DNA of 62,918 bases, the filler included, from Hausera hauseri (lineage: Eukaryota), in the NCBI GenBank assembly GCA_046269625.1. It is 11 parts of 11 records of this genome, joined end to end, with 100 filler letters (N's around TTAATTAATTAA, not from the genome) between each part and the next. Parts side by side here need not be neighbours in the genome. Positions count along the whole stretch, not along the records: positions 1 to 5,675 come from JBJURY010208744.1; 10 more parts are not named here. The stretch is one strand, 5' to 3'. Position numbers and translations under genes: made by a program. The notes beneath the pieces are model-generated. The model made no database searches. It saw nothing but the letters and a program-made list of their open reading frames with translations, and had not been told where the DNA came from. Shown here piece after piece: positions 1 to 57,016 of this stretch (its first letter is position 1; the number at the start of each line of letters is the position of its first letter).

Positions 1-2509
1 AAAAACCGTAGACAAACCAGGAATTTTGACAGAAGTCGATTTAGATGCAGAACCTGAATTCACGGTTGAAAAGGTAAATAAGACTACTGAAGAAGAGAGC
101 CGAGAAAGAATTCATGGAGCAACTGATACTTAAAATTACGAAAAATAGAGGCCGCAGTCCTTCATTAAAAAGGAAACGTAGAAGTCGTTCACGTTTGAAA
201 GTAACTAGAGAGAAAACAGAAGAAACAAGAAATACAGACATCGCTGTAGAGAGCAATATAGAGCCTAGCTTAAATACACCAGAAATCGTTCCATTCACAC
301 CTATCAAAGTAAGAGTCTGTAGAGTCGGTTAACAAAATTAATGAGATTTGCCCAATTCTCATTAGTGAAGAAGAAAAGGGAGACATTGATTTTGATTCAA
401 GAAAATGGAATGTCCAGCGTTCGTGGGAAAACGCCGATGAATTGAAGAAAATGAGAATAAGATGCCACGATCCGGAAATATTACAACGAAATTTAGAAAG
501 ACTCAAGCAGATTAGCGAACAATTAGATATATCCGGCAATGAGCAACAATTTTCTGAGCGATTATATAAAAGCAATCGACTTAGGACAACTTGAAGAGGT
601 GCCACCTGAAGCACTAATAAAATGGAAACGTGAATTAGAATCATGGATTAAAAGTACAGTCGAATTTTCCGAAGGATGGAGCAAAAACGAAGACAATGTC
701 GATGGGATAGTCGCTAAAGCCCAAACGTTATTGTCTAATTTAGACAGATCCAATCAGAAGAGAGTAGTCCGTAATTTAGAGCGTATAATGTATGAAATTC
801 TATGTGCAATGATTAATTGACTTAGAGAAAAACCGGTTAGCAATCGAAATGATATTGATTTAGAAATATTGGGTATAGACCCAGTAGATATTTCTCCCTT
901 AATGGGGATGATAAAAATTGCCTTAGCTGAACCTAAACAATATACGAACCTAGAGGATCGTATCAGAATGGAGAATGAAAGGCGAACACAAATTTGTAGT
1001 GTGAGAAACCGAATTGTTTATAAATAACGAGGAAATCCAATAAGTAATAAAGGCTTGTTTCATAGAATTCGACGAATATAAGGATGAGTTTAATTACGTC
1101 AGCCGGGTCATGAATTTTATAAAAGGTCCAGATGACGAACTAAAGGATGTGTATAAGATGTTAGATAAGGCTATATCAGCAAAGCCAATAGTTGCTAATC
1201 AGTTGTCGGAATGGACAGAACTATTAACGGGACTAAGTAAATTAGCAGAAGATCGTACGAAAGAATTTACAGAAAGTGAGCCTTCTATAAAGAAACAATT
1301 AGAAGAAAACGCGCGTAACTTAGGTACAATAAAGGCAGAAATAGATATCCGAACTCAATTCCAAACATTACGACAACTATATTTTATGAAGAGCAAGAAG
1401 CGGCGATATTGGAAGATTTATAAAATGATCGAAGAAACAAACTTTACATAGAAGCGAAATGACTTGCAATTTATACCAAGATTAAGAAACATTCGACTAG
1501 GAGTCCAGTATTTAACAGCTAAATCTATGGACGAAATTTCAATGCAATATATCGAAACCTTAGGTATTTGTGCAGAACACAGAGCGGCTATAGAATAAGC
1601 AATGAGGTTCATACGAAAACCACAAGAATGGATGGCCGGAACAGATCAGAATTGCCATACCGAGTTGACAAAAATAAGAAATGACCAGCACTTTAGTTTT
1701 GAAGAATCCAAGTTTGTAAAAAAATTGCTCGATGCAATAGATACAGATTCAAAAATCATCACTGAAATGTACGAGATGGCCTTTCTCTTAGTAGAAATAG
1801 CAGAAATTAATGATGAGACAATTGATGCCTAAAATAAGACAAGCCGGAGAAACATGCATTAAAACTAAACAAAGAGCAACCAGGTTAGACGAACTAATGA
1901 AATAGCTTGAAGTCTATCGGAACAAATATGCTTTTACCGAGTCAGAGATCAAAAATAAGCGAGAATTTGCACAAAGATGGCAAAAAGATGTAATTATTGA
2001 ACAAACTAACTATTACCATAAAGGATTCATTCATTCTAATGAACTAGGCGAACTGCTGAAAACGATTCAGTATGCCTGTGGAAACGTAGTATAATTCTGG
2101 ACCACACAGATGAAAGAAATATAGTCAAGGCTAAAAGAAATTCGAGAGAATGTACAAAAGGCGAAGACAACACTAGTGGACTTCCAGACGTTGGAAACGA
2201 ACCAGAATGGGATGCATAATTAAATGCGTTAGCGACCGAAAATCCTGTGACTCAAGTACAGCTAAATAAAATTGAAACGTGTCTGCAGAATAGGAGATTT
2301 AATGTGGAGATGCTCCTGGATTCAGCGGTAACTGAAAAAGATTTAATTAAAATAATTAACGTAAATATTGCTGAAAGTAAGTTAAGACAACTTATTTTGA
2401 CACTAACTAAATTATCCAGTGAGAGCACGGTTTATAGCGCGGTGCCGAAACATTTGATAAAGAAATACTTTTGATAAGGAAAATCTTGAGGGAAAAGCCT
2501 GAAGTAACG

Positions 2510-2719
2510 ATGAGAGTAATGGTATCATCCGAGTGGATGGATGAAAAAGAATGTGAGTTAACTACTTATTCCTATGTAAGGTACATAAGAGAGTGGTTAA
2601 TAAATAATGTCGGAACAAATGAGTTAAATTATAGATTTTACTTTAAAGGTAGAATACTAGACGATTTAGAATAATTAATAGACGTCGGAATTATTCCAGA
2701 AGAAACAAATAGAATAGTA
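2510..2719 (+). pseudogene. Ubiquitin-like (beta-grasp) domain within the polyprotein, copy 1
   Basis: MRVMVSSEWMDEKECELTTYSYVRYIREWLINNVGTNELNYRFYFKGRILDDLE*LIDVGIIPEETNRIV aligns without gaps to ubiquitin 1-70. 15 identities by hand include G35, R42, F45, G47, L50, D52, L56, D58, I61. The stop at 2672 is CAA in copy 2. Confidence 0.65.
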
Positions 2720-3459
2720 GCAATAGTAGCCAAGGAACAGAACAAAGAAGAAGCCACACGAAATGCTAAGACAGAATAATGCGTAAGACAAATCATGGGA
2801 GTCCGAGATGCTACAATGTATTTTGAGTATTTACAAACGGATGAAGACAATGACCAATACGAGAATAATTTAGTGCCACTGAGTAAAATAATAACCTATG
2901 TTCCAAGATCAAAACGCCCGTCGGTAGGCCCAAGAAGATGCTAGAAGAAATTGACTATAATGGGGAATTGATTAGAGAGTTGAGACAAATGTCGATTCCT
3001 ACTTTCAGCACAGATAATGAAGAGTTAAACGAATTAATGAAGAATTTAATACGAATTGTAAATTATTCAAGCCTTCGAGGCAATACATTAGACGATAAGG
3101 AGAANNNNNNNNNNGCGATATTTAATGTAGCTAGAATGACGAGAAGTTCGCGTTTCAAATTATCCAAAAGCAACCTAATCGATGAATCGTTAATCGAAAA
3201 GATCATGGTGAAAAACGCCACTGAAGAATTAAGAAAAGTATTACTGTACTTAGCCATCAAAATAAACCATAATCGAAAGAATGAAATTAACAGAGCAACA
3301 AGCTTAGCACGAAAAGCGGCGAGAAGGCTACCATGCGAAATTAATTGGTCGAGATTATTCAATAAGGAAGAAGACAAACGATACAGAAACAGCAATAGAC
3401 TCGAAGATATGTTACGTAACTTGACAACGACGGATAATAGCCACCAGAAAAATGAATCC

Positions 3460-5300
3460 AATTGGTTAATCAGCTTACTTACCGTGATGATGCTTATAAA
3501 GTATATAGGTGCTGTCACTGTCTACGACTGCGATAAGTTTAAACTATGACAGAAATATTCTCTAATGGACTTAGAAGTATGTGAGGATTCCAGACCGCAC
3601 AAGTTAGAAATGAGAGAGAAAAGTTATTTTCTATACCAAAAACAAGAATTGATATCATTAGTTGGAGTGGAATGTATGGTGAGACAATCTCGTAGTATTT
3701 TTCACTGTTGAATAATGCACGGACATTCTTCAATAATCAAACCAACAACCCCGCCGATTCCGATGAACTTAGAACGACAGCACTGCAAACAAGCTAAGGA
3801 AGCCGGAAGATTAAAATGGGATAGTATGGAGCTAGAGATGCAGCCAGGAAAGATAATTAGAGCCTACAAAGTAGTAATTGGAAGGTTAGACATGCATAAC
3901 GGACATTATAACGGAGCGGAATGCGACACCGGAAAAGGATTAGAAGCAAACGTAGTAGTCGCAGATTTCTATGAATTAGAAATGCGAATACAGAAAGTAA
4001 TGTTCCATAGCCTCACCAAACTTTATACCGAAATCAAAAATGCCATTTACAAGACGGAACATGTGCTTTTAAAAGTTCTGTTATAATATGGGTACCTCCC
4101 TCTGGAAGAAGCTGTAATTTCATCAAGATTAAAGAAATAAAATTTAATAAAACCACCGGAAAGCGATATATGGATAAATGTGATATCAGTTTAAGAACAC
4201 GCGAAGACGTATCAGAACATCCTACACATACTATATTAATCTCTGCTCAGCATGGGTTAAAATTTATTAACAAAGAAATGATTTCTCGTTGTTAAGTAGT
4301 GATGTTCGCTACCAACTATGAAGCGTTCTTTGTCACAGAAACAAAAATAAATGCGAAGACTTACAAGTTGCAAACATAAGATATTCGGATTAAGGACTAC
4401 ATGAAAAACATAGATGATTATTTCTATTACAAGAGACAAGTCGGAATAACTGAATTATACCATAAAATGATAACAAACAATAGTAAATTAAATACGGAAA
4501 TCATGAGGACAAAGCTGGCTCTTATTTACGCTAATCCTGAGTTGGCATCCTCAATAATTCCTATGAGAGAAGGAATCCTCGGTCGAGTTACCGGTGAAGT
4601 TCTGTTGACTTACGAATATGAAAAAAAGACGTACCAATCAACGTTGAAGGAAAACGTTTTATATAGGAACTCCCCGTTATTTACCAGAATACTCCAAGGT
4701 TTGCCACGCCACTCACTAGAGCATTATTAGATAATGCAACCGAACCAACTATCCTAAAATATTGTAAAGCAAGCTTGGGAGAACCCATGTTTAGGCATAG
4801 TGAAACGGATTGGGTTAGTCTGCGAAGCGGAGGTATTACTGCCGTTCCAAATGAATTAACAGGAACATATCTCGCAAAAGGAATTACAGACGACAAATTT
4901 CAAGATACCTCATTGAAGGGTATAGATAGACCTAAGGAAATTGAAGCTTTCAGACAATTTCTCGTACGAGTTAAATCGAGCTATAGCATCCGTAGTAGAT
5001 GAACTCGGTATCAAGCTAAATGGTAATCCTTACTTGGCGTAAATCACTATCAGCGAGTAACCACAGAAATCCTCTATAAAACTTGGGGAAGATTTTTAAT
5101 CTTTGGACAAACCGCTTCCGGATTTCTAGCGATATATTTCCTAGTACAAATGATTAAGGCCGTCATTAAAGCAGTAATAAATGGATATGAAATATTTACA
5201 TTGACCGCATTTTTGTGCAAAATACTAACTACAATTATGACGCCTTTCGGAAAATTTTTAAAAGCATAGGAAGAGAATAGATGGAAATCGAACGTAGAAC
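3460..5300 (+). pseudogene. Chuvirus/Monjiviricetes-like class III fusion glycoprotein (env), copy 1
   Basis: Signal-like NWLISLLTVMMLIKYIGA, then VTVYDC...YSLMDLEVC; ECMVRQSRSIFHC*IMHGHSS (cf. chuviral CxxxxxRxxxHCGMHSH); LALIYANPE...GILGRVTGEVLLTY; TM FGQTASGFLAIYFLVQMIKAVIKAVINGYEIF. Confidence 0.8.
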
Positions 5301-5675
5301 GCCACATCGTTTAACACAATCGTAGACGGAAACGAAGACCTATGTTCTTATACAAGCGGAAGATCACAAAACCTAATATACGAAGAAATAATTCAGATGA
5401 TGACGAGCCTTAGGAAGCAGAAGTACTTTCGAAAACCGACAAGCACAAGACGTATTCCGTAACTAAAGCACCACTGCCTATGCTACCTCCTACTGCTCCA
5501 GTCTACGGAGACTGTGACAAGCGATCAATGAACTCGCATCAGACAGAAATATATAAGAGGACAATTAGCTTAGTAGACCTCTACGAAGGAACAAAACGTT
5601 ATGGAGTCTTACGAAAAATGTGTTATCGACAACCCATGGATGATTCCACAGTTTTGTATTCTACAAAAGAACCTA

Positions 5676-5775: not shown

Positions 5776-8700
5776 ATCTTTGCTTTTGCTTTCGGGAATT
5801 TCTAATTAGAATCGGTTTTTTGTAGTTTTGAAGTATGTTACCGGACATTGTGGTAGTAATTTATTATTTTTGTGTAAATCAGGCAGCGTTCCAAATTCAT
5901 CGTCTTGTTTACAGAGAGCAAATCGTTTCAGAAGAGGAGACGTAGGCTATCGTCGTTATTTAATTCTATACAATGAGATTGGATTTTCATAACTGCCTCA
6001 AAACCATATACGGTAGCAAAAAAATCATGAATATTTCTTTTGAATAGAATAGATTTTTGTGCAATGCAGCACGGGAATCTGGATGATCAGCAACTGACTT
6101 GTTCACGCGCAATGCGTGGATTTTTGCAAACGATTTTTCCAAATCAGGAAGTTTTAATTTTAGATTTAATCGGTGCAAGTATTGCTACTAAATTAAGTAT
6201 TTCTTGTACAGCCTCTTGATTTTCTCGGATCTACTTGGACTGTGGTGACACCCGAGTCCACGGCACCTCACTACCCCCCGTTACGAAAGTGACACTGTTA
6301 ATGTAACGAAAGTAAGGAGACAAGGCAGAACGGTGTAAGCGAACTATTGGGTCTTTGTATTGACAAGACGTTGGATTTTGTAAATATTTTGTTCTGAAAG
6401 TAACTGTTTTGCTTTGTTTGACGTGCTGTTTGATTGTATGCTGATGCGATTGTAATGTATTTAAATTTTGATTTGACATGTCAGTAAATTGAGAACTAGT
6501 CGGTATGTCGCTTTGCGTAGTCTTTTGAATTAATGCAGGTTTTGGAGTAGCAGGTTGTTGTGTAGGTAGAATGGAGGAAGAATTGAAAAAATCAAGAAAA
6601 TTTTGCGTAGGCTCAGCTGAGGGTTCAGGCGTGTCGTTGACGAAAAATATAGGTTTTACGTTGGTTATGTGTACATTTTGTTCTTTATCGTTTTTTAATA
6701 CCTTAACTGTATGTGAGGTAACATTGAGAACTTTAAATAGTTCTAAATAGTTGGGTTGGAAACCGGAGGGTGAAGGGTTTTTTAACCACACAAACTTTGC
6801 ATTAAATAGCGAGTCAGGTAAGTACGTTTTGTCCCCATGTACTATTTTGCAGAAAGAGTCCTGGTTTAATTGTATGAAATGGTTTTGTGCGGACCTAATG
6901 GTTTTGTCACTTGGTGTGTTGTCCAAGTCGGTGAGCTCAAAAAGTGCACGAATTGTGGTATCAAAAAGTGCTTCAGCAGGTGCGCAACCGGTGGTAGTAG
7001 ACGGTGTGTTGCGCCGCCCGAGTAAAACAAAATGGAGGATGGTTATCCAATTCTTATAAGTTTCGGCCAGGATTTTAAACGAGATCTTGCGAGTGCGATA
7101 AAAGCGTTCCAATAATCCGTTCGACTAGAAATGGTATGCCCAGTCGATTAACTAAAGATTTGAATAGATTCGATTCAAATTGGAGACCTTGGTCTGTAAT
7201 TATTTAGCGAAGTGAACCGAACCGGCTAATCGAAATCCTTATAAATGCATCGGCAATGGAGTCTATATTGATGGAGCGCAAAGGGACGGCTTCAGGCCAA
7301 CGAAACGCGCGGTCCATCATTGTTAAGATAAATTGGTGGCCGTTATCGGAAGGTAATGGGCCAACGATATCTATGTGAACTGACTCAAAACGGGGTGTAT
7401 ATGGAAAATGGAATAATGGTGGTTTAAGATATTATCTACTTTGAACTTTTGGCAAGCTACGCATTGCCTAACCAAACTCTGTTCATCAGTCCTCATTGAT
7501 GGCCATGTTACGTGGCGTTTGAGAAGGCGGAATGTAGCCTTGGAACCTGAGTGATGCAAAGAATGAACATGTTGAAATGTAGTTTGTTGGAGAGGAGGTG
7601 CCAAAATTGGCAAATGTTGTCCAGGTGTCGAAGTATACATGGCTATTCCATCAATGATTTGCACGGATTTATATTGTTTCAGAATTTCATTGGCAGGTGG
7701 ATTTTGTATTAACTGATCCTTTGAGAAAATTGGTGTGACGCTAATTGCACCGACTGACCGTGATAGGAAGTCAGCTATTAAATTGTCTGTTCCTGAAATA
7801 TGGCAAATTTTAAAGTTGAATGTTAAAAGATATGATATATGGCGTTCTTATCGAAGTAATGGCTGTTTTATGTTCATTACGTGAACGAGAGGTTTGTGGT
7901 CATTTTAAATGGTGAAGGAACGAGCGATAAGCAAGTGTGAAAAGTGTTTCAGAGCTGAAACAATAGCAAAGAGTTCTCTATCGAAGGTAGAGTAGCGGCG
8001 TTCTTGTGGCTGCAGCTTACGCGAAAAAAATTCTAACGGTTTATTTATCCCTTGAGATATTTGATGAAGAACCGCTCCTACTTCTGTAGTTGATGCGTCG
8101 GTTGTTAAAATGAGTTCAGAATCAGGTTTTGTGTAGGCTAAAATCTAGACTGTTTTGAGCTTTTCGCGGAGTTCATCGAACTGATTGACAAGTTCTGGTG
8201 TCCAATATATGAGCTTTTTCTTCGGCCACGCTCCTAGTTGAGCGAAAGGAGCAGTTAACTGGCTGCAGTGTGGGACGTATTTATTGACAAAATGTGAAGT
8301 AGCAAAGAAACTACGCATATCAGTGGTAGCTTTTGGTAGCTCAATGTTTTGCAGTTGATGGATTCTATCAGGCTGTGGACTGTGGCCGTCAGGTGTGATG
8401 ACGTGGCCAAGGAAATGTACCTTTTTCTGAAAGAAGGAACATTTGGAAAAGTTCACTTGTAAATTGTAGTTGTGCAAGCGTTGGAAAACTAGTCTGAGAT
8501 GCTCTTCATGTTGTTTGGGCAATGTTGATGTGACTAGTATGTTGTCAATGTATGGATATGCAAATGACAAGCCTAAAAGAACTGAATCTATATGCCGTTG
8601 GAAAGTTTGTGCTGCGTTATTTAAGCCCAACGGCATGAATGTGTATTCGAAAAGACCAAACGGTGTTATAATGGCCGTTTTTGGGATATTTTCTGGTGCT

Positions 8701-9760
8701 ACTGGTAATTGTGGTAGGCTGAATAAATCGTAGTTTTGTGTAAGGAATGCAATATATCCTTAATCAACGGTAAAGGATAAGCGTCCATGGTTGTGACATT
8801 ATTAAGTTGTCGATAGTCGCCGCATGGACGGAATGTGCCATCTTTCTTTGGGACGACGTGCAATGGTGATGCCCATGGTGACTTAGAGCGCTTTATGATT
8901 CCAGCTTGCTCAAGTGCAGAGAATTCCGCTTGTACTGCCTGTCGACTACGTGGTAAAAGTGGACGGAGTTTCTGCCTAAGGGGCCTAAGGTTTTCTGTGA
9001 CGATATGATGGAACGTCGTGTTAGCCGGTCGAAATGCTGAGTCTTTTTTATTGTGTGAAAGCAAGAATTGAATAAATATTGCTGCATTTCCTGGCTAAGT
9101 GTAGTAAAGGCTGTTGTTGTCGCGACAGTTGTTTGATTGGACTTAGTATGTGAAATACTAGAGATTGAATCACCTAAATCGTCCTTGTGAAAGTGGTTTT
9201 GTTTCTCTATTACTGGACTATAACAAAATGTGTGATTATTTATATGAGTATTACTGACGTTCTTATTTGCGTTAGTTGAAGGGTCTTTTATTATCGATTT
9301 TATAAGTGAAATAGCTTGCGTGACTTGTTGGATATTTAAAAAGGTGAGTTTTGTTGGACTGCTCATGATGATCTTACGTTGTCTACAATCTACAAGGAGG
9401 TTGTAGAAAGATAGGAAATGAGATCCAAGTATTGGCGATTGTGTGTCGGCAACGATGAATGTCCAATTGAAAGTGTCGGGGAATGATGGTAATGTGAATG
9501 AGACTTTGGACGTGCCGAAAATGCGTAAAGCTTGGCCGTTTGCTGTATACAGTTTGATGTTAGACGATGAGATAGATAGTGTTTTGATGGATGGTGGTAA
9601 TAAGGAAACGGCAGCCCCTGAGTCTATGAGGAAGTTGATTGGCTGATTAGGTTTGGATGTTAAGGAGGCTTTTAATGTGAAAACAGCATTTGTGCGGCTG
9701 TAGCAGTGACGAGGGTAGCCTTTGCCAGCATGCGCCGGAACATCTGTCGGCTTCACTAAT
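5776..9760 (-). mobile_element. pol: Degenerate Ty3/Gypsy LTR retrotransposon: protease-RT-RNase H-integrase, PPT and probable 3' LTR
   Basis: FLIDSGAAVS protease; SPWASPLHVVPKKDGTFRPCGDYRQLN; MPLGLNNAAQTFQR...YIDNIL (YIDD mutated); RNase H TTDAST...YSTFDRELFAI; integrase HSLHH...CVAC and ERFYRT. G-rich PPT (AACGGGGGGTAG, minus 6282-6271) followed by TG. Many stops and frameshifts. Confidence 0.93.
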
Positions 9761-10264
9761 TTTTTTGAATAGGAGGATTTGGGGAGTCAGGAGAATTGCG
9801 ATGGAATTGTTTAAGTTGCGAAAGATGTTAACGGTTTAGTACATTCATTAATATATGTATAAAAGAAATATGACAGATTCATTGACTCAGGGTCGTTTAA
9901 TTGAGATTTAGTGTGTGTGCAGTGTGTGTATATGTATGTTTTGGAAGAAAAGATAGATAGAGGAAAAGACATGTTTATTTTGTAAGGAAAGCAAAATAAA
10001 GAAGACGGTATGTGCCATTTCGGGGGTATAGCGTATCATTCGGGACCCGGTCGCAACCAAAATCGTTCCGAATAGAGGTTCCGTATATTCGTCAGCAGTA
10101 TGTTTTAAATATCGTGGCCAGGTGTAAAGATGTAGTTGCTGTCATATGTATTACCGTATTTATGTTTTGAACATTTTCATGATCTTTTCATCGCGATTCA
10201 ACGGATCTCGTTGTAAACACAGTCGGATGTACGCTACGTCGATATTACGAAATATTTGCTGCAT

Positions 10265-10520
10265 TGCGTACCGACCCTTCAATCTGATGATTACTACCGG
10301 GTAAGAAAGTACCTCACGTAACGTTGAAACTATGATTCCGATGCGAATACGGATTCCCAGTGACATGCACAAGGATGCTTCAACAGTAAATAATGCGCTG
10401 AAAGCGAGTCCCCATTTACTGTTAACCAAATCGATCTTCCTGATGGAGAAATAAACATGCAATATAAATACTAAATGTGTCAATAAAAGTGGAACATGCG
10501 TGGACAAAAATTCTTTATTA
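10265..10520 (-). pseudogene. SCAP: Fragment of SREBP cleavage-activating protein (sterol-sensing domain)
   Basis: VPLLLTHLVFILHVYFSIRKIDLVNSKWGLAFSALFTVEASLCMSLG matches SCAP [35 protein letters not shown]. Similarity ends after ~80 aa. Confidence 0.75.
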
Positions 10521-10618
10521 ATATACGAAATTTCGATTTTAAATTCAACAGGATCATGAATGTTAATATTGTATATTGCTTTCAAATTCGAAATAGTAGT
10601 GGTTAAAAGCCTTTTGTC

Positions 10619-11155
10619 TCAAGTTTTCTCTGATCGTTCATGCCGCGGATGAGGTAATCCCAAATGACCTTGTTCTGGTCTAAACATACGATTGAAAATG
10701 TGATTTCGTAAATGTAATTTCAAATTTTCAACCACAATTTGTTTGTTAAAAACTAATTTGTAAATATCAGGTTTCAAATTGACATACGGATAAATCATTG
10801 GATTTTCATTAGTCGTTTTACAACGTAAATTAAGTGGTTTATTATAACTTCCAATTAATTCAACAAATGATATGTTATACTTATCATTGTTCGTTATTAA
10901 CCTTGTTAATGATTGGTAAAGTTCATCAAGTTGGTAGAATGTACGACAAAATACTTTCCAACTATTTGTATCAATCAAAGACGGCATTAGTAATAAACTT
11001 AAATTTATGCCAGGTTCGAGTCGGTATTGTTTTGTGAAATCGAACGAACAGTTATTATTATCAAGATACAAAAGTATATCATTCTGATAAGCATTGTCAG
11101 AATCGATTATTTTATAATCCTCGTAAGGAATTATATAAATTCCAGAAAATTTCAA
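10619..11155 (-). CDS. Unassigned 178-aa open frame
   Basis: Uninterrupted protein-like ORF; no family recognised. Confidence 0.25.
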   Translation of the reverse strand: MKFSGIYIIPYEDYKIIDSDNAYQNDILLYLDNNNCSFDFTKQYRLEPGINLSLLLMPSLIDTNSWKVFCRTFYQLDELYQSLTRLITNNDKYNISFVELIGSYNKPLNLRCKTTNENPMIYPYVNLKPDIYKLVFNKQIVVENLKLHLRNHIFNRMFRPEQGHLGLPHPRHERSEKT

Positions 11156-13189
11156 AGTCGTTGTACAGCTCTGAGATAAATTTATAATTACAATTTTTTT
11201 ATGAAAAATGAATGGTTAATTTTATGATTTAAAATATAGCTGTAGAAAAGAGCACCTGACAGAAACAAATAAACCAATATTAATACCGTTTTCCATTTAA
11301 CTGGAGATNNNNNNNNNNNNNNNNNNNNNNNNNNNNNNNNNNNNNNNNNNNNTTAATTAATTAANNNNNNNNNNNNNNNNNNNNNNNNNNNNNNNNNNNN
11401 NNNNNNNNCCCGACGAAACAAATCGAATCGTGAAAATAGTTCTATTGTTTTCTTTAAGTCCTGGAATCCGTCAGAGTATTTCTCTTCTGGTGTTAGATCT
11501 ATTAATTGAATGTAAGGGTGGCAATTGGATTTAGTAATGCAATCTTACCTAAAACAGTGGTCGTTGATTAGATAGCTGAGATTGAGGATTTAATAGAATG
11601 GTAATGAACCAAATTCTGCGTCACAGTTGTTGTCGTCAAAATTTTTCGTAGAATAATTATGTGTACTACGTCTGTCTTGGCAGTTTATATACTGTCTTGA
11701 TTTTTCAAAATCATTCGTCAGTTTCAATAATTAGAATTCCAGCCTTTGCTTGTTGGTGATAATTTTAAAAATTTGATCCATGCAATTTGAATAATTGCAT
11801 TTGTCGGGAATTGCTATGTTAGCTTGGGTGAGTTGCTGGATTAGGATTTTGAAAATTTCAAGCAATAATTTTTATTTTTGCCGTGGTTTTGATAATTGCG
11901 GTTGCCTGGACTTGCTACGAGGACCACATAATTTAGCTTCCGAAATTGGGTAATTATTTGTCTCGACATTCTTGTTTTGCTTTTTTCAATATTCCGTAAT
12001 TTCTGTATGGGACGACCCGTTGGGTACAGGTTTTAATTAACTGATATTCTTTAATAAATTTGGAATTCGAAAATATCAATCCATTAAATCTGTAAAAGTC
12101 TGGTAAACCTACTGTGAAAATCTGAAAGGCCACGAGTAAAATCTTTTATCAAAATTATTGGCAACAGGTGACTTATAAATGTGATATTCCGTGTTAGAAA
12201 TGCATGTAGTCGAATGTAACTAAATAATCCATCACGAATTTAAGTGAAAATAGATCGAATATGACATGTATCTTTGGATTTTTGAAAAATCAAACTTTAG
12301 TCATCTCACAATGATATATTTAAAAACATCGTCCACTCAGAAAAAACAAATATTTAAACAACAAAAAAGTATACAAATTAAAATTTTTGTTTGGTGGACC
12401 AATGTGGGCACCATACATCCATTGTGATTTTTGCTAATTCTCGAAATACGGAGTGTAGTTTCGCTGTTTCAGGCGCCACAATCATTTTCGAAAACCGAGT
12501 CAGCATTCGATACCGTTAGGCTGACGTGTTCTCCGCCTTACTCTTTGCCTTTTAGCTCTTGTTCGGTTGGCGGTCGACCGGTCATCTATTCAAAAATCAA
12601 CGATCGAAATACATTTTTATGTATAGTTTACGTGGATAATTCTAAAGTTGCTACGGATTTATTTTAGTCATTTTTGACAGTGATTTTTATAATAAATTGT
12701 ATAAGAGCGTTTTAAAATCCATCGGAGATATTAAAATCAGATTTTTACAAGAATGGCGAATTCAATTCAGTGATTTGGCAATTGGGCAACAGCAAACTGG
12801 AGTTGACGACATAAGCAGAGCAAATAACCTATTTGAATTAGACAAAGAATTTAGCAAAATCAATTTTTCATCCCGCCCTGTGGTGCCCACAGTGGCAGGT
12901 GTTCTTTGGCCCAGTTGGTCGGGCACAGCCGGGCGTCCGTTGCCGCCGCGTCGGGCCCATAGTCGGGCCCGATCTCCCGCCTCACGAATCTATTTACAGA
13001 ACACCTCTACCACTTTACAATACTGAAAATGGAATCTTCGTGGAAGGTGGACGTGTGATTGATCAAAATACGGTTATCCATCGGTGGTTACTAAACGCTG
13101 TATTTTTTGTTATTATATTCCTCGTTCTGATTTTTGTCTTATTTGCAGTTCTCTATTTCCTGAGGATGAAACGACAACAAAAATCAAAG

Positions 13190-13465
13190 ATACCCCCAAA
13201 GCGAAACTGTGTGAAGATGATCTATGGAAACGATTCAACACTCTGACAACGGAGATGGTTATTACAAAATCTGACAGACGAATGTTTCCTGCATTCAAAG
13301 TTCAACTAAGTGGACTCGATGCAAAATCGAAATACGTTTTAGCACTCGAACTAATTCCGTGCTACGACAATTGTTTTAAATTCCACAACGGCAAATGTAC
13401 ATTGGCTGGCAAAGACGCTCCCGAATGGAATCAACTTATTAATTTTCACTGTGAATCGCCGGCAT
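13190..13465 (+). pseudogene. N-terminal half of a T-box DNA-binding domain (Tbx2/3-omb-like)
   Basis: DLWKRFNTLTTEMVITKSDRRMFPAFKVQLSGLDAKSKYVLALELIP...FKFHNG...AGKDAPE...HCESPA. Conserved residues are altered (SGRR to SDRR, W to C) and the frame continues into unrelated Ser-rich sequence. Confidence 0.85.
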
Positions 13466-14269
13466 TAAGCGAGTGTATAAATCTTCACATATCAACAGAA
13501 AAGATAGCCTGTCTGGATACTAGTCAGAATTCCATCGAATCAGTTTGTTCTAGTCAAGACAATGGTCCATGCCATTCACCTATCAAAATAGAGAGTATTG
13601 ACGTATCAGAAATCGACGAAGCTGTTCATATACAATCGTTGGCACCTAAACGAAAATCCAGTTGTGATCTTCTTTTATCGAACTTTAACACGACCCCCAT
13701 AAAAAATCCAAATACACCATCTCGTTTAAAGCTCAGCATATCTTCAAGTATGTCGAGTATTTTTTCCATATCCAAGAGAAAAACGACATTATCAGAAAGT
13801 CAAGATAAACGACGTGGTTTGACATTACCGTTGAATACGACCAAAGTGAAACAGCAAATTATTAGTCCAATGGTCGTTTGTACTAATCAATTTGAACACC
13901 CGCCAATTACATTCGTTACTCATAATTACAGTTTTTAAAATTGTTAAAAATGTAACTCCTTATCTGAAATTCGATTCGGTTCAAGACATGACAGCGGGAT
14001 TTTGTGTCTCTTCATCCAGAGTCGACTAAGATCCAGACACTCCTGTCTTTAAATCTAGACTAAAATCCGAACCTCGTAAACAGTTGGATGAATTGGAACG
14101 TGAAGTTAACGTGCGAGTAATTGTTAAATCGCTTTTCAGCGGTCCTCTTAAAAGATAAGAATCAAAGAAAATTCTGCAAACTATTTCGATCACTGATCTC
14201 TATCCGTCTGTTAACGTGTCAGCTGAATCACAAAATAATCTGACAAATGAAAATTCTCGCAATGATAAC

Positions 14270-14615: not shown

Positions 14616-14959
14616 GGTGAAATTATTTTTCTTTTTTTAATTATGTACAGTTGTTTAAACATTGTAAATAAAAAAAGAAAAATAAACAGTTAATGCAACA
14701 ATTCAAATTGTTTTTCATTGAAAGGCCGTCTTTTTAGTTTTGTAATTCTTACAACATTTTGATTGTGCAGTTACAGCGACAATTTTTGGTGGGTTCTTTT
14801 TTGACGGAATTTGTTATTCAATTACAATTCTACGTCTACCATCTAGATTCAGAGTTGCTGTCCCTTTAGATTTTAGAATTTTATCTCGATCACAGTTTTT
14901 TCTTTTGAATTTTGGATTGATCGTTGGTCAAGTTGATTGTGGTGTGTTCGGCTGTCATT

Positions 14960-16715
14960 TGTGATAATAACGGATAACAAGGTTGTAGAAAGATAAGAAA
15001 TCAGACCCAAGTATTTGAGATTGTGTGTCGGCAACAATGAACGTCCAATTAAAAATGTCGGTGAATGGTGGTAAAGTGAATGAATCTTGGACGTGCCGAA
15101 AATGTGTAAAGCTTGGCCGTTATCTGTGTACAATTTGGTGTTAAATGGAGAGGTGTATAGTGTTTTGATGGATGGTGGTAATAAAGCAACAGCTGCCACA
15201 GAGTCAATTAGGAAGTTGATTGATTGATTGAATTTGGAAGTTAAAGAGGCTTTTAATGTAAAAACTGCATAAGTACGGCTATTATGATGGAAACATTTGC
15301 CTGTGTCAAAACATCTGGCGGCTTTATGCGTTGTTTGGAGGCACGGGATTCATGTTGTTGGAAGGCGTAGGATGTGATGAATTAGATCTGTTAACGAATG
15401 TGCAACCTGTAACGCAATTCTGTGCTTTAGAATTAAATTTATTATATTATGTGCAGATAATATCAGATTGTTTGAAATGGGGCTCATAATATCTGCAACC
15501 TAAGCAGCATTTAGTCAACTTGTTTTTGAATTTAGTGTGGTAGTAACATACCATTGATAGTGTAGGTGACCTTGCATGCCTTGAATTTTGAGCTGAAGTG
15601 TGACTATGGTTTGCATCGAAACGATTTCGTCTAGGCATGGTCAAAGCTTCGATTTTTGACATGAGTGCAGAAATTGCTTGATGTATGTTGGCGTTTTCGG
15701 CACGTAAAGAATTTATCTGAGTTCAGATTAGCTATGTTGCTAGCTTGTTGAGTTGTTGGTGCTTGTAACGTAGCGGCTACTAATGGGGCTGCATGTACAT
15801 GTAATATCTTGTGGCTTTTGTCAGCCAGTTGTGCTAGTTTTTGTAGTGATGATGTGTCCTCTACTGTGGTCAGCAGGGCACGTGTGCCTTTGTGTAAAGA
15901 CTGCAGAAAATACCTGCGTAGTAAATTGGCGTTGTTTGCATGATTAACGCCTAGAATACTCAATTGAGTTAGTGAGGTCTGAAGGAATTCTGAGGGTTTC
16001 AATGTGCCTATGGTGTTGTCATTGAAATATATGTTGATAATTTTATCCAGAGATGGTACCGTGATTTTTAGAATTGAGTTAAAAAGTGTTTTGTATGGGT
16101 CAATGCTTTGGAAAATGTCAGACAAGTTGGGAAGCTGCGACTTAATGTTGGAAGGCAGAAGTATAAGCAAGCTGTTTGCTTTAAGAAACGAGTCGACAAT
16201 ATTATTTGACTTCAACCAATCCTCATGAAAGTCCAACCACGTCCGGCTGGAGTGTTGCTTGTCGACGAAGTATTCTACACAAGGTAGATTTGCAGTAGAT
16301 GACGGAGGTATAGGTGAATTTAACGGTACACTTATAGTAAGAATGTCAGCAAAGGCCTTTTGGTCCTTAAAAGATGTTTTTGGGTCAGATCCACCTAGCC
16401 GACGGTAGTGTACGGTGAGTATAGATGTTGAAGATGAGTGTTTGTAACTTGTTATAGTGTCGGATTGTCGGAGAAAAAATGCACTATAACTAAGGCGAAA
16501 ATTAGCGAGAGTTGTTTGTCGCCGTAACGTGTCTGATAAATTTGCAATTATTGTTCACTTGTGTATGTAGTAGGTTTGCGTATGCTTATTTTCGAATAAT
16601 AAAACGAAAGGAACGAAAATGTTACATAGGTCGGGCGTGCAGTGTGGTGCATAAAACACGGGCGCGCCCAAAATCCCTGCATTGTAATGACTGATCTTTT
16701 TGACCTGGGTGATCA
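14960..16715 (-). mobile_element. gag: Ty3/Gypsy 5' fragment: leader, gag and protease (same family as 5776-9760)
   Basis: Gag DPYKTL...LKPSEFL...LLRRYFLQSL...LQKLAQLADK and CYYHTKFKNKLTKCCLGC knuckle. Protease region 14975-15290 is near-colinear with 9395-9710. Confidence 0.85.
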
Positions 16716-20107: not shown

Positions 20108-21151
20108 TCAACGACGTCGAAAATGTAACAGAAAATATGTCGTTGACCCAAACAGAAATTTAATGGGTTTTCAAAATTCATCAAGCATATACACGGAAAT
20201 ACTGTGCACAATGTTGTGAGACAATGATAAATACATGGGTCTGATCATATTAACGCGAACAGTTTCACACGATGATTTGAACGTGTCAGAATCCACTTCG
20301 ATAGAAATCAGCAGTTGTTTACGCTCTCCACCAGCGAGTACGGAGTCCGTTAAATCCGTTAAAATGTTGATTCTATGAAATGTTCCAGAGTTTTGGTTTG
20401 TATTTGGCAACAACAGATCGTCCAACAATGTTTTTATAGAATTCGCGTTTTGAAAAGCCCAGCTTCCGAGCCAATAATTCATCAGAGACAAAATATGTAA
20501 CATTGCCATGTAGTATAATCGAAATTTGACAATCTGCGTTTATGTAACATGTCTTTACAGCTAATAAAGCCGGTTTCTTGACGTATTCACACAATCCCAT
20601 TAATAAATTATGTGGTATAATATATGAGCGGGAAACTGCTTCTGACTTAGTCCACTTTACTATAATATTGGATTCCGCATTGGATAAAAGGTCCAATTTT
20701 TCAGCAATTATAACATATCCACCTAGCCCTAGATGTTTTGAGTGTAAATTGATTTATTGAAAACCCATACTTGAACATCAGCTATAGATTTCAACTGCAT
20801 TTCAATGGGATTTCGATGCATTAGTTTCATACGGTAGTTTGAAAAATAAGAATAAACCGAGAAATGTTGTCGCGAATAATTGCAAAGAATATATCGGTTA
20901 TTGTGTCGGATTGTCCGCAAACGACTTGAAATAGGGTACGTTTCTTGTAGGGTAAAGTAAATACCACCGTTCTGAAGTATTGTCATTGGTGAAAATGTAA
21001 ATGTAAATTCCGTCAAAGCCAGTTCCCAGGCTCCCTGGCGAAAATCAACAGGTTGGTCCAACTGCATGGTAAACTGTTTAGCGTTATTGTCACTGTCATC
21101 ATGTTGTGATAATGATCTGTTACTATCGAGTACAAAGTAAATGCTGCTCAT
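20108..21151 (-). pseudogene. Polinton minor capsid (penton) paralog 1
   Basis: MSSIYFVLDSNRS...NNAKQFTMQLDQPVDFRQGAWELALTEF; C-terminal ILTDLTDSVLAGGERKQLL...RPMYLSL...ISVYMLDEF*KPIKF...LLHFRRR*. The start overlaps the integrase stop (ATGA). Confidence 0.8.
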
Positions 21152-22180
21152 TGAATTTGTGATGCAAAAATCCAACTCGGTGCAGCGTAACCGTTCCACT
21201 TGACGAGATATTCTTTATTCGAACCTTTACCACGTAAACGTAGAATTTCCTGAATACAATATACATCGGGTTTCTCGGGCAGTAGCTGCAGTTCCTGTTC
21301 GTAGAATTTACCGAGTATTTCCTCACCATTTTTATCCTCTAAAACGTACATGACAGGTGTTTGTTTTGTGATGATTGCCAAAATGCGGAAAACCTCGTCG
21401 TTCCAGTTCTGATTAAAATTCTTAATGAATGGCGTCGTACTCAGCCTTGAAATACGTACATAAGCATCGATTTCATATTTTTGGCGTTTAATTGCCGATG
21501 ATTGTGTTCGGTTTGGACAAAGCCACATGTTCAAATCATCGATTACATCAACCGGGCGCATTCCGTTGATTCCACGGTGTGTAGAGTGATTGTATGTATG
21601 AATACTATGCGGCCGTACATATATCCAACGTTTATTGCCTTGCTTTATAAATAATTTGTTTATGCGACCGCGTAATGTTCATTTAAGTCGTTCATCTAGT
21701 GCAGCCTTGTATTGGGAAAACACAGAGTAGTGGTTTACGCCCAACCGTTTCAAGACCGCTGCAACGTGGGCGTTGTAGAATTATTTACCTAAATCTGTTT
21801 GAAAATGCTTCGCCTGTTGTTGTTGTATCAGTGTCTGGACAGCGCCCCAAATCTCTTTACTGGATTTAGATTTCACAGCAATTTCACGTGCAAAAGGACT
21901 AAATACATCAACACATGTCAGCACGTACCGATACCCATCGTTGATGCTGGCGTACGGAACCATTTCTATTAGATTCATTTGCCATACGTTATTTACACCG
22001 GCAGCACGATATGCACGAGTTGGAAACCGCCTTCTTATCGGTTTGTTTAGGCTGTATGCTAACTGTTTCCAGATCAAACGTTGGGCCTGTTGCCGATTCT
22101 GTTTGACAGTCTTTGCCAGTTTGTCGACTCGAGTATACCCGACAAGATGACGCGGATCGAACCACAGGTCGCCCATCGTT
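21148..22180 (-). pseudogene. Polinton retroviral-like integrase with C-terminal chromodomain
   Basis: VWQMNLIEM...NDGYRYVLTCVDVFS...FQTDLGK; YNHSTHRGINGMRP; NWNDEVFRI...YVLEDKNGEEILGKFYEQELQ; chromodomain YCIQEILRLRGKGSNKEYLVKWNGY...SWI. Confidence 0.9.
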
Positions 22181-22599
22181 GTCGTCGATGGTGCTGGTAT
22201 TGCTTGAATTACAACAATTAGAACGAAACGTAAATGAAAGATTCAGTAAACTGGGGCAAAATGATGAAAACCATGCAGTAAAAAAACCGTCACCCAGTAA
22301 TGACGTGACAATCGGAAGAATTGCACCAAGGAATCCGCCATCTTNNNNNNNNNNNNNNNNNNNNNNNNNNNNNNNNNNNNNNNNNNNNTTAATTAATTAA
22401 NNNNNNNNNNNNNNNNNNNNNNNNNNNNNNNNNNNNNNNNNNNNCAAAACACAAAAGACACTTAACAAAGTACATTATTAACATTAAAATAAAACAATGT
22501 ACAATAGATAATTGTCAATAATTGTCACAATATCCAGACCAGATTGAGTTGCCTGTATATGATCTGATCTGACACCACCGTACGTGTTTTATTTCAACC

Positions 22600-39649: not shown

Positions 39650-41059
39650 AATCACCCCCCCGTGGCAGAAGAAAAATATGTAAAGAAAAAAAAGAATGAT
39701 GAATATAATATAGATGAAAACTATAAATCGTAACAAGAAGTAATGTTTGGTTCCTATTCGGTTTTGGTCCGTGTTAGGCGTTGGACTCCATCTATGAACT
39801 TATCCCTGATGCAAGTAGTAAATATCACTTGGCGTGACCTGTTAGATGTTACTGGTGCTTGTGAAGTTGTTTGCGGGAGAGATATTGTGGATTCTGTGGT
39901 GCTTGAAAATGCTTCATGAAGAGGTGAAAGTGGAGAAGAAGCCGAAAAAGGAAAAGGATCACGCGCAGAAGATGAGACTGGAGATGTCAACAAATCGTGC
40001 GATGAAGGTGAAATGAGTAGTGGATATGCAGGCGATAAAGGAGAGGCAGATGGTGAGGGAACAGTGGATGATGGCGGAAGTGAAGAGAGCTAATTGTGAC
40101 GTGAGAGTGAATGCTGCGAAAGATTAAAATCATCAAGGAAATTAGATGATGGCTTGAGGGTGGAGAAGTTAGAGTTTGGATTTGAAATAATGCTGTTATC
40201 TTTGTCATCGTCAACAAAGAAGGCTGGCTTAAGATTAAAAATGTGTATGTTTTGAGCTTTGTCCTGGCGTAGAATAGTAGCGATGTGTGAAGAAAAGTTC
40301 AGTAATTTGTAAGGGCCAACGTATTGAGGCCGAAAACCAGAAGGCGACGGATCCTTCAGCCATACAAACTTGGCTGAGTATAAGTCCTCTGGGATATAAG
40401 ATTTGTCTCTGTTTATAAAACGGCAGAAGGCATTTGAGTTGACATCAGCAAAGTGGGACTGTGTCGCTCGAATAACGTCATCTGACGGACTTTCATCGAG
40501 ATGGGAGAGCTGAAATAGTGCACGAACTTGTGTCCCAAAGAGAGCCGCAGCTGGGGCACAGCCTGTGTTGGTGGATGGCGTGTTGCACCAACCGAGTAGG
40601 ACAAGAGGAAGAATTGAGGTCCAGTTATGATTGTTGTTTGCCAGGATTTTTAATATAATCTTTATGGTACAATGAAATCTCTCGAGAAGACCATTTGCTT
40701 GGGGATGGTACGGCGTCGTATGAAAGTGGGCTATCCCCAAGTGCTTCACAAGAGATTTGAAAAGATCATCTTCAAATTGNNNNNNNNNNAAATGGCTGAC
40801 CCATATTTTAATAAATGCATCAGCTACTGAGTCAGCGTTGGTTGATCGAAGCGGAACGGCTTCCGGCCAGCGAGAAGCGCAATCCATCGTGGATAGGATA
40901 TATTGATAACCATAGTCGGCAGGTAGAGAACCCATAAGATCCAGTTGCACGGTTTCAAAACGAGAAGTTCAAGGGAAGTGGTACAGTGGTGGTCTGAGGT
41001 GTTTATGAACCTTGTACTGTTGACATGCTACACATCCTTTGACCCGGATTTGTACATCG
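39650..41059 (-). mobile_element. Ty3/Gypsy integrase and 3' end with PPT
   Basis: VQLDLMGSLP...RWPEAVPL...TTPYHPQANGLLERFH...GPYK. Minus-strand GCCACGGGGGGG followed by TG near 39654. Confidence 0.9.
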
Positions 41060-42448: not shown

Positions 42449-44146
42449 TCATATATAAACCAAAAATGTCACCTCATTAGCAAACTGGAGAACATGCGCC
42501 AAATACTGAGTTAATTCTTTATTCAGTCGTTCCAAATTGATTATAACCGTAAGATAGCTATGCTGGAATTCCATCGAAATTGGTTCCCTAGTGGCCATCT
42601 GAATAACAAAAATATGATTACGAACATCTAACATTTATACTTTCCACTGGGCAATATTGTTCAATTCTCGGTGTTCCTCTACGCACTGTTTTTTCACCTC
42701 GAGAATTTTACTGAGTTTTGTCTAAGAACACCAAATAATTTATCCAACAAATTATTACATACCACCATCACGAGGAATTTCATCGGATATCCACCGTACA
42801 AATCCGCTTCATTCAAAGTAATTCGACCGCCCGTTCGTTGAAGATTATTCGACATGGAATTCGTCAGTGCAGAAGTGCCCATACTGGCAGCAACATCACC
42901 ACTACTGATCTCCGGTAATTTCAGACTCATTGTACCACTATCCGCATTACAAAGAGAACAATCAGGAAATGCGCTGAATTCCCCGCGACTATTGAGTTTC
43001 ATATGATGCTGATGGCGCGTTCCCTATGGATGCAATTAAAGACACTATAAAAATTTATACTGATTGAAGCGCTGATTGGGCAAGTAATCGAGCTGGACTC
43101 ATGAATAAATTTCGACTGGCTTTATGTTGCATTTTAAACGCAGACAACGGAATAACGTCTTGTGGTTGGATGCTGAGTACTTCGTAGTCAGGTACTGCAC
43201 GAGTGCCCAATGCTGGTTTTTCAAAAGAAACCCGATAACTGTTATTAATGGCATCAATAGCATCAACGTGACCGACATATAAACCATCTGTGGGATGCCT
43301 CACTCTAATGAGAGAACACAAATTTTTAATGATTTTAATTTGACATAATTCTCATCACCTCGCCGTAACTTTTGTTCCAATAATCAATGGCATCGGAATA
43401 CAAATATCATCCGGAAGATCTTTTAACAAATCCAACTCAACAGACCGTTTCTGCTGTAACGTTCGAATTTTTTGACGTTTCGAATGTAACGACGCTCGTT
43501 CTTCTTTGAAAAACTGAAATGAACATCGACGAGGTTTTCCCATCATTTTCCTTATACATGCCCATTGAGCTCTCGTCAGTTTTCTAGTTTTCAGTGACGG
43601 AAATGTTTCTCGGAGAAATACCCGAAAATCATTTTCACCCAACAGCAACGGTCGATCGAGATTGGAATAGAACCATTCATAAAATACCCATTTGTGAGCT
43701 TTGGGTAATTTGAGAACGTTTCGCAACTTTATAGCATTCGTTTGAGCAACCTTCCTTTCGGACAATGGAATACCTACTCGATTGTTACTACCAATTACCA
43801 AATTTTTACTAATCTGTAATATCAAATGGTAAAAAGTCAATCTCACTCAGAGGTACTTTTGTCGGCACTCCCTTCCTTCCTCTGGTATAAGACGTTTCAT
43901 CGGGAGGTAACATAACACCTAAATTGTCATTTTTCTGTGTTTCGCCTGATTCGTAAATATCGTCTTCGAAATATCGAGTCCTTCTTCGCAATCGAGGAGG
44001 CTTCAAATTTGTTTAGATAAATGCAAAGAAAATTTATTACATTTCTACGAAATCCTGTTTCATACTCTTCAACTTCATCTAAATATTTACTAAATTAATT
44101 TGAATCCATTGTCAAAAATCTTACAACTTTCTAATTGCTCTGACAT
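42449..44146 (-). CDS. LIN9: LIN-9 / Mip130 (DREAM/MuvB subunit), multi-exon; 3' part not found on this contig
   Basis: DIRP-domain sequence LRNVLKLPKAHKWVFYEWFYSNLDRPL...KTRKLTRAQWACIRKMMGKPRRCS..FFKEER; Tudor-like GTKVTARVRHPTDGLYVGHVDAID...VPDYEVLS; GGYPMKFL. Short GT-AG introns (e.g. ~43306-43358). The ATG at 44146 is inferred. Confidence 0.9.
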
Positions 44147-45894: not shown

Positions 45895-48800
45895 GCTAAC
45901 TGAAAGGGATTTAATTGAGCTAATTAACGTAAACATTACTGAAAGTAAGTTAAGACAACTTATTCCGACCTCAACTAAATTATTTAGTGAAAGTACAATT
46001 TATAGTACGGTGCCGAAACTTTTGATAAGGAAATACGCTAAAATTTTTAGGGCTAGACATGAGGTAACGATGAAAATAATGGTATCATCCGAGTGGATGG
46101 TTGAAAAGGAATGTGAGTTCACTACATATTCTTATGTAAGGGACGTAAGAGAATGGTTATTAAATAATGGTGGAACAAATGAGCTAAATTACAGAATTTA
46201 CTTTAGATGTAGAATACCAGACGATTTAGAACAATTAATAGATGTAGGAATTATCACCGCCAAAACAAATCGGATAGTACTAATAATAGCCAATGAACAG
46301 ACGAAAGAAGAAGCCACACGAAAAGCCAAGACAGACCAATGCATAGGACAAATTATGGGAGTCCGAGATGCTGCAATATAATTCGAGTATTTACAGACGG
46401 ATGAAAATAAGGAACAATACGACAAAAATTTAACACCACTCAGCGAAGTGATAGCCAATGTTCCAAGACTGAAACGCTCAGACGATAGGCCTAAGAAAAC
46501 GCGAGAAGAAGTGGACTACAATGGAGAATTGATTAGAGAACTGAGACAAATGTCAATTCCGACTTTCAGTACAAACAATGGGGAATTAAACGAGTTAGTG
46601 AAGAATTTAATACGAATTGTAAATTATTCAAGCCTTCGAGGTGATGTATTAGATGATAAAGAAAATATAATATTTGATGCAGCTAGAATGATGAGAATTT
46701 CACGTTTTAAACTATCAAAAAGTAACTTAGCCGATGAATCGGTTATTGAAAAGGTCATAGTAGAAAACACTAATGAGGAACTGAGAAAAGTATTACTATA
46801 CTTAGCTATTAAAATAAAACCTAATCGACAGAATGAAATCAATAGAGCTGTAAGCTTAGCACGAGAAGCGGCGAGAAGATTGCCCTGCGAAGTAAATTGG
46901 TCAAGACTGTTTGACAAGGAAGAAGACAAACGGACCAGTAATAAACTTGACGATATGTTACGTAATTTGACAACGGCGGATGTTGTCCACCCGAAAAATG
47001 AATCAAATTGGCTAATCCGTCTACTTAGCCTGATGATGCTAATAAAGCACATAAGCGCTGTTACCATTTACGACTGCGATAAGTTTAAATTAGGGCAAAT
47101 ATATTCCCTAATGAATCTGGAAGTGTGCGAAGACGCCAGACCACACAAGTTGGAAACAAGAGAGAAAAATTATTTCCTGTACCAACATAGCGGACATTGT
47201 TACGGAGCGGAATACGACACTGGGAAAGGATTGCAAGCTAAAGTGGTAGTCGAGGATTTTTACAAATTGGAGATGCGATCACAGAAAGTAATGTTCCATA
47301 GTGTCACCAAGTTATACATTGAGAATCAGAAGTGTCATTTACAAGACAAAACCTGTGCTTTTAGAAGTTCTGTTATAATATGGGAGCCCCCTCTGGACGA
47401 AGTTGTAATTTTATTGAAATTAAGGAACTGAAATTTAATGAAACTACCGGAAAGCGATATGTGGATATATCGGATACCAACTCAAGGACACGCGAAGATA
47501 TATCAGAACACCCTACACCCAATATATTAATATCGGATCAGCATGGACTGATATTTGTTAAAAAAGAGATGATCTCTCGTTGTGATGCAGTGATGTTTGC
47601 TACTAACTATGAGGCACTTTTTGTCGCAGAAACGGAAATAAATGCAAAGACTTACAAACTAGAAACGTAGGATGTCCGAAATGAGGATTACCTGAAAAAC
47701 AGAGACAATTACTTCTATTACAAAAGGCAAGTAGGAATAACTGAATTATATTACAAAATGATAACAAATGACTGTAAATTGGATACCGAGATCATGAGGA
47801 CAAAATTAGCTCTTATATATGCCAACCCAGAATTGACTTCTACAATAATTCGTATGAGAGAGGGAATTTTCGGTCGGGTCACGGGCGAGGTACTGCTAAC
47901 CTACTAATGCGAAAAGAAAGATGTACCCATCAACGTTGAAGGAAAACGTTGCATTCAGGAACTCCATGTCATTTATCAAAATACTCCCAGGTTAGCTACA
48001 CCGTTGATGAGAGTGTTACTGGATAATGCAACCCAACCAACCATCCTTAGAGATTGTAAGGCAATCTTAGGAGAGTCCATGTTTAGACACAGTGAAACAA
48101 ACTGGGTTAGTATGCCAAATGGAGGTATCACTGCCGCTCTAAATAAATTAATAGGAACAAACCTTGCGAAAGGAGTTACGGACGATAAATTTCAAGACAC
48201 ATCGTCAAAAGGCATATACAGGCCTAAGGAAATCGAAGCCTTCAGACAATTCCTCGCTTTTCCGCGACAACGAACACATGAATTAAACCGAGCCATGGCC
48301 TCGGTAGATGATACACAATATTAGTCTAAATGGGAATCTTTACTTGACGTAAACCATTATCAGCGAGTAACCACAGAAATACTCTACAAAATTTGGGGAA
48401 GATTTTTGATTTTCGGACAAGCCGCATCCGGATTCTTAGCGATATATTTTCTGATACAAATGATTAAAGCAGTCATCCAAGCAGTAATAAATGGGTATGA
48501 AATATTTACATTGACTGGATTTTCATGTAAGATACTGACTGCAATCATAATGCCCTTTGGAAAATTCTTAAAAGCATACGAAGAAAATAGATGGAAATCA
48601 GACGTAGAACGCCATGTCCGTTATTATAATCGTAAACGAAAAGGAAAGCATATATTCTTGCAAAAGCGGAAATTTACAAAATCTAATATAAGAAGAAATA
48701 ATTCAGATGATGAAGAGCCTAAGGGAGGAGAAGTACTTTCAGGAATAAATAGACATAAGATGTACTCTGTCATTAAAGCGCCGTTGCCTATGCTACCTCC

Positions 48801-56419: not shown

Positions 56420-57016
56420 TATGTAATTTTAAGTGAAATTTTAACCTTTATATCGTCGAATCAGCCTTAAGAACCGAAGAGAAACTATATAGGGAATTTA
56501 GAACAAGTAATTCACACTTACAATATAATAAACCAATACAGATATCGTCACTCTCAATAATCGTCAATAATGTCGAATAGTGAATTTGCCAGATAGACTT
56601 CGGTTTTCAAAAGACTGTGCTCTCGTCCACTCTTTAATTTTAAATTAACGAATTTTTCTCAACTTTGCCTTCACAACCGACTCCTAAGTCGATAAAAGAT
56701 ATCCCTATACTGCCAGGAGCATTGACTTAAATAGTAGTCTACCGTGTAGGCGTTTTATTAACCTTTCAATTTTTAAATTAAATACGTACAGTTTCTTTGG
56801 CTATTAAATTCGTTACACTGATTAATAAATCAATGAAATTAATAAATAATATGTACAATTCTACTACTATTCAATTTCAATTCTGTAACTATTTAATTCA
56901 TCAATAATTAATATGTACAATGGTAGTGGCAACCTATTCTTCACGATGTGTTTAATCTGACAACAATAGCTGATCTGATTGATAGTGATAAGTGATTTAC
57001 AACATTTCTCCTCCCT
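56420..57016 (-). repeat. Candidate PPT (57016-57005) and 3' LTR starting TGTTGTAA at 57004; far end uncertain
   Basis: 12-nt purine run directly before TG; minus-strand AATAAA at 56759-56754; non-coding AT-rich sequence follows. Confidence 0.5.

Follow-up and report, generated by a model that had tools for sequence, protein, structure and literature searches.

The window, that is, the whole stretch of DNA analysed here (62,918 nucleotides from Hausera hauseri, GenBank assembly GCA_046269625.1), is made up of 11 short contigs with N-TTAATTAATTAA-N linkers between them, and because the contigs were joined artificially, neighbours across the linkers are unrelated. Two of them carry decayed copies of an env-bearing retrotransposon, copy 1 on the contig at 1-5675 and copy 2 on the contig at 45895-50150 (5.7 and 4.3 kb). 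Upstream of env, each copy encodes a stretch of 70 residues (2510-2719 in copy 1 and 46070-46279 in copy 2, both +), which probably forms a ubiquitin-like domain (UBL) of beta-grasp fold, integral to its protein (type II) and not conjugated, so that the first-pass annotation of an integral, non-conjugatable UBL upstream of env is likely right. We estimate a probability of roughly 0.6 that this UBL belongs to the accessory region in the gag-env-pol polyprotein of a Burro-type gypsy element and acts as a docking module for host ubiquitin/proteasome factors.

Resemblance to ubiquitin and predicted fold

As reference, 78 distinct open reading frames (ORFs) in ubiquitin register were collected from 121 viral loci, and gapless profile scoring was used to rank 37,385 six-frame segments, each 70 residues long and containing no more than two stops or unknowns. 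Both copies align to the 78 viral ORFs without gaps over all 70 residues, as the first-pass annotation had described, with median identity of 15/70 in copy 1 and 13/70 in copy 2. They took ranks 1 and 2 with scores of 37.9 and 18.3 (the third segment scored 9.4), and none of 200,000 shuffles matched the score of either copy (z of 5.98 for copy 1 and 4.85 for copy 2). The signal lies mostly in residues 41-70 (z of 5.9 and 4.2, respectively), and residues 1-20 and 21-40 contribute p of 0.02-0.06 each. Retention of the hydrophobic core pattern, also claimed before, was borne out at 13 of 16 core positions in copy 1 and 12 of 16 in copy 2, with I13 and L67 unmatched. The hhalign comparison with ubiquitin gave 47 gapless columns in the same register (P of 0.017), while three control alignments from the same element gave 2-14 columns (P of 0.17-0.64). 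E-values against polyubiquitin entries of the PDB were discarded as an artefact of repeat summing.

The C-terminal Gly-Gly (GG) is absent from both copies, as expected from the earlier annotation: positions 75-76 read KE and NE in the two copies, and the linker which follows does not contain GG either. Because of this, the usual routes of conjugation and of cleavage by deubiquitinases would be closed to the UBL. In its lack of GG and in its motifs F-x-G-[KR]-x-L-x-D and L-x-D-x-x-I it is like the type II integral UBLs of RAD23, DSK2, BAG6, parkin and midnolin; of the motif residues, G47 and L50 are gone from copy 2. Type II UBLs are parts of host proteins and usually N-terminal, whereas the present one is internal in a retroelement polyprotein and its L8/H68 surface is altered.

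The two-sequence AlphaFold model, which is of low confidence, consists of E3-10, E13-21, H25-37, E45-47, E62-64 and E73-75 (E, strand; H, helix), following the order of ubiquitin. In fold searches, at least 32 of 50 rows of VIA-align and, among the matches listed, 15 of 43 rows of Foldseek named ubiquitin-fold proteins (both counted by hand), and the lists are filled by RAD23, DSK2, BAG6, parkin and midnolin. The quality of a single-sequence model made for copy 2 was too low for fold search (predicted local distance difference test score of 46). The first-pass annotation had regarded the lack of both a beta-grasp prediction and a ubiquitin profile match as speaking against a UBL; a beta-grasp-ordered model and a weak ubiquitin profile match (described below) both exist. 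No single test is significant alone, and the tests taken together make it very probable that the 70 residues form a real ubiquitin-like fold.

Searches for relatives of the element in sequence collections were negative. HMMER with the 370-aa stretch before env gave 0 matches in 1.84 billion representatives, word searches gave no homologue among 4,522, 3 and 1,811 candidates, and none was found in the viral contig scans or the first metagenome scan. One metagenome locus (L122) was rejected as a chance match, being a bacterial repeat-protein region of 65% GC. Nothing was found with Rfam, and in the search of public runs no RNA holder was listed.

Frame, selection and layout of the element

Copy 2 has an open frame which starts with the contig and includes the UBL (58 codons upstream and 33 downstream of it); interrupted by one stop at 46379-46381, it continues to the signal peptide of env. 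This shared frame with one intervening stop agrees with the first-pass annotation, and the corresponding codon of copy 1 is not a stop. Because a coding stretch of copy 2 (45896-46069, +) stands in frame ahead of the UBL, the domain is internal in a larger protein; it lies about 260 codons ahead of mature env. Copy 1 has stops at 2672-2674 in the UBL and 2777-2779 in the linker, and frame changes near 2472-2479 and 2917. These breaks, as well as the two motif residues lost in copy 2, come in addition to what had been described before.

The two copies share about 80% DNA identity across 2329-3639 and 3895-5674 (copy 1 coordinates). The ratio of non-synonymous to synonymous substitution rates (dN/dS) between them, one of the checks that had been proposed, was 0.25 in the UBL (confidence interval 0.10-0.61) versus 0.53 and 0.81 in shifted frames. 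It means that the UBL stretch is under purifying selection. The value was 0.31 just upstream of the UBL (2329-2471 of copy 1, which is common to copy 2), rose to 0.52 for the linker and fell to 0.16 for the helical domain and 0.02-0.15 for env, whose cytoplasmic tail is looser (0.27).

In one public run, which is possibly the source of the window itself and in which contig depth does not equal copy number, 15,052 records of related contigs fall on copy 2 and 1,373 on 2440-2840, 633 of these being less than 90% alike. Among the 20 variable places listed in the UBL (40 of 47 rows, the stop excluded), hand reading gave 9 silent, 9 conservative and 2 radical changes, and the motif stretch at 2636-2671 had only two variable places among the rows listed, one silent and one conservative. 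At the two stop sites of copy 1, another letter is present in contigs with 3,400 of 3,741 and 6,614 of 6,759 summed depth, and these stops look private to copy 1. The departures of copy 2 at 46208 and 46218 are its own decay. Copies 1 and 2 are dead fossils, and the UBL is a constrained, internal part of a large, much-copied family.

All parts of the element are on the + strand. Within the contigs, the order runs from about 800 codons of mostly helical and charged sequence (1-2471 in copy 1), decayed by many stops and frame changes and with no convincing Pfam match; Gag was not seen within the contig of copy 1. Then come the UBL, a linker (2720-2952 and 46280-46510), a helical domain of about 165 aa (2953-3459 and 46511-47005) at the position of the BCL2-like domain of Burro, and a hydrophobic internal signal peptide, which is predicted from hydropathy in copy 2 (47006-47059, peak at 47012) and placed in copy 1 by its match to copy 2 (3460-3513). 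The env (PF24664) with transmembrane segment and cytoplasmic tail occupies 3514-5675 in copy 1 (Pfam E of 2e-9; broken) and 47060-49029 in copy 2 (E of 1.5e-16, 7.3e-7 and 6.9e-12; internal deletion and stops). It is followed in copy 2 by a weakly matched aspartic protease (49149-49589; Pfam RVP E of 0.041, Asp_protease E of 0.043) and, at 49590-50150, by a putative beta-rich stretch of 123 aa at the position of the dUTPase-like domain of Burro and a presumed start of reverse transcriptase (RT) at the contig end. The possibility of a DDI1-like arrangement, with UBL, helical domain and retroviral protease, was given up because env lies in between and the DDI2 match has an E of only 0.7. The same env codon is an in-frame stop in both copies (4377-4379 and 47668-47670, +), with different stop codons, which is likely coincidental decay. 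Copy 2 also has a frame change at 48985-49148 (+), between env tail and protease, where contig cover is low; it is either decay or a programmed shift.

This order matches that of the giant planarian gypsy elements Burro/GYPSM1, for which a Ubi2/SUMO-like motif upstream of a BCL2-like domain and env was published in 2019 (PMC6431247; this and the other papers are cited from the parts of their text that were covered). The published order is MATH, Ubi2/SUMO-like, BCL2-like, env, protease (PR), dUTPase-like and RT (PMC6431247). Burro elements have one gag-env-pol frame, about 5,000 aa long, with Gag at the N-terminus and CCHC knuckles, and their long terminal repeats are themselves long. A UBL upstream of env was therefore already in print, and the novelty which the first-pass annotation had seen in such a domain of a retroelement does not hold. 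Both elements have the UBL motif (a likely UBL here), the helical domain, the mononegavirus-related env (PF24664 here) and, ahead of it, a long accessory region, with the protease (weakly matched here) after env, and decayed copies with stops and frameshifts were likewise described for Dugesia japonica (PMC6431247). The UBL of Burro was matched to PF11976 (Ubi2/SUMO-like) by HHpred, whereas here the weak match is to PF00240 and PF11976 is not among the Pfam matches listed for the UBL stretch. Burro has MATH, while in our searches of the element MATH was not detected and just upstream of the UBL it was not seen; the D. tigrina element also has no MATH in ORF1. The helical domain gave no Bcl-2 match in Pfam or PDB (the Burro call was made by other methods), and its BCL2 identity is putative; the 123-aa stretch gave no dUTPase or RT match. 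Gag, RT and integrase lie outside both contigs. With the BCL2-like, MATH and dUTPase-like domains undetected, the kinship rests on domain order, by which we consider the element to be, with high probability, of Burro type.

In Platyhelminthes, Nematoda and Bryozoa, GAG-ENV-POL errantiviruses whose env is of gB type (PMC13524379) likewise have an env of chuvirus/gB-like class (PF24664) ahead of pol. The main text of that paper has the word 'ubiquitin' 0 times, and accessory domains are not annotated in the text covered. No other case of a UBL in a retroelement was found in our literature search, as judged by title or abstract start.

Possible roles of the domain

The usual partners on which type II UBLs dock are proteasome receptors, p97 adaptors or ligases. 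The accessory domains of Burro are enriched for ubiquitination and apoptosis functions (PMC6431247), and its Burro1 RING/BIR region is reported, second-hand, to protect stem cells from apoptosis (via PMC13465017). These three points together lead us to favour a docking module. Through the internal signal peptide, env would enter the lumen, and the chain ahead of it, with the UBL, would stay in the cytosol and remain membrane-bound until cleavage releases env. The UBL may then bind proteasome receptors, p97 adaptors or E2/E3 enzymes, like type II UBLs, and such docking would determine how the accessory segment is turned over or where it is placed. If the UBL fold and the Burro-type element are granted, we give this mechanism about an even chance.

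The first-pass annotation had proposed a ubiquitin mimic for budding or for interaction with proteasome and host defence, and it is the second part that we favour. As for the first, a membrane-tied UBL could be a built-in ubiquitin surrogate which recruits the endosomal sorting machinery ESCRT, perhaps with the help of a PTAP motif (PLPMLPPTAPVY) in the env cytoplasmic tail. This motif is identical in both copies (5489-5500 and 48799-48810, +) and sits in the env tail, not in Gag; no other late-domain-like motif was found in either copy when its three forward frames were searched. PTAP is a Tsg101-binding late motif (PMC10144533), and judged by sequence it may serve as a late domain here. PT/SAP and ubiquitin each have a pocket in the UEV domain of Tsg101 (PMC5680296), the UBL would lie at the cytosolic face in the predicted topology, and E64 is kept in copy 1. 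There is also a precedent in engineered fusions, in which a GG-less ubiquitin in chain with Gag replaced late domains and drove ESCRT-dependent release (PMC2958808). But these fusions use true ubiquitin and release needed L8 and I44 (PMC2958808), while the UBL here is about 21% identical to ubiquitin and in gapless register ubiquitin positions 8, 44, 68 and 70 read E, Y, R and V, so that L8 is acidic, I44 is Tyr and H68 is Arg. Moreover, PTAP alone would give entry to ESCRT without a mimic, and the literature covered shows no particles of such elements. We regard a budding surrogate as unlikely. The more specific idea, that the UBL is held at the membrane by the env signal anchor and engages Tsg101/ESCRT jointly with the env-tail PTAP as an encoded ubiquitin surrogate, is quite doubtful; if true, this would make the polyprotein a natural case of self-ubiquitination in a retroelement and would indicate that elements of Burro type are released by budding as particles.

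The lost surface also suits a real beta-grasp domain without host partners, which would serve only to separate and stabilise its neighbours in the polyprotein, as a structural spacer or an aid to folding. Two points weigh on this side: the ubiquitin surface patch is lost while the core is kept, and the dN/dS of 0.25 is looser than that of env and of the helical domain. The enrichment of Burro accessory domains in ubiquitin and apoptosis functions suggests capture for a host-facing role instead (PMC6431247), and we hold a mere spacer to be no likelier than a budding surrogate.

More basic is the objection that a constrained alpha/beta segment unrelated to ubiquitin resembles it by chance, and several results count for it and against a UBL. 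All library searches stayed below threshold. With Pfam, a check proposed by the first-pass annotation, the ubiquitin profile (PF00240) was the only match of copy 1 (E of 0.052, 13.7 bits, residues 23-63 on profile 21-61), below the curated cut-off of 25.4 bits, and copy 2 had no ubiquitin match. Neighbouring stretches match unrelated Pfam families at E of 0.004-0.07, the AlphaFold models are of low confidence, and ubiquitin folds are common in the PDB. Against chance stand the gapless register over the full length (z about 6), the sequence of strands and helix in the model, and the published UBL at the same place in elements of the same layout, which make this explanation rather improbable. 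Pestivirus polyproteins have ubiquitin inserts which act as processing signals cut by deubiquitinases, and a similar role would fit a position inside a polyprotein with further domains downstream, but with GG absent at 75-76 and in the following linker of both copies it is highly improbable.

Other features of the window and significance

Gypsy family fragments of ordinary type (protease, RT, integrase) are present at 5776-11308, 14873-16554, 40090-40968 and 53415-54745 (all -), and blastn showed them to be unrelated to the env-bearing element. An intronless ORF of more than 540 codons at 56997-58622 (-) has a RING finger near its end (E of 7e-9) and no other domain; it is possibly the accessory end of another retroelement. 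Decayed ORFs at 20729-22242 (-) presumably resemble a Ginger/Polinton-type integrase with chromodomain-like end, and they are accompanied by a neighbouring ORF. A G/T-rich tandem array of 3.5 kb (59339-62803) has nested units of 15, 25, 40 and 65 bp and GC skew up to 0.88, and its minus strand reads repeats rich in Thr, Pro, His and Ser. Host genes in other contigs are a T-box gene (partial, 13063-13938, +, Pfam E of 2.6e-22), TPPC8, LRWD1 and an ABC protein, which indicate an animal genome. We take 10160-10618 (-), inside a gypsy contig, to be a sterol-sensing-like fragment and 43355-43846 (-) to be a LIN-9-like exon.

The UBL reveals no new kind of system. It means that a domain which was given one sentence in a 2019 review is now supported independently by sequence register and selection, and that it is no stray insert but stood under constraint in a family with many copies. 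The PTAP of the env tail bears on whether elements of Burro type are true enveloped proviruses and leave the cell by budding. As a small, expressible domain, the UBL gives a handle on how giant retroelements plug into the ubiquitin and cell-death pathways of their hosts.
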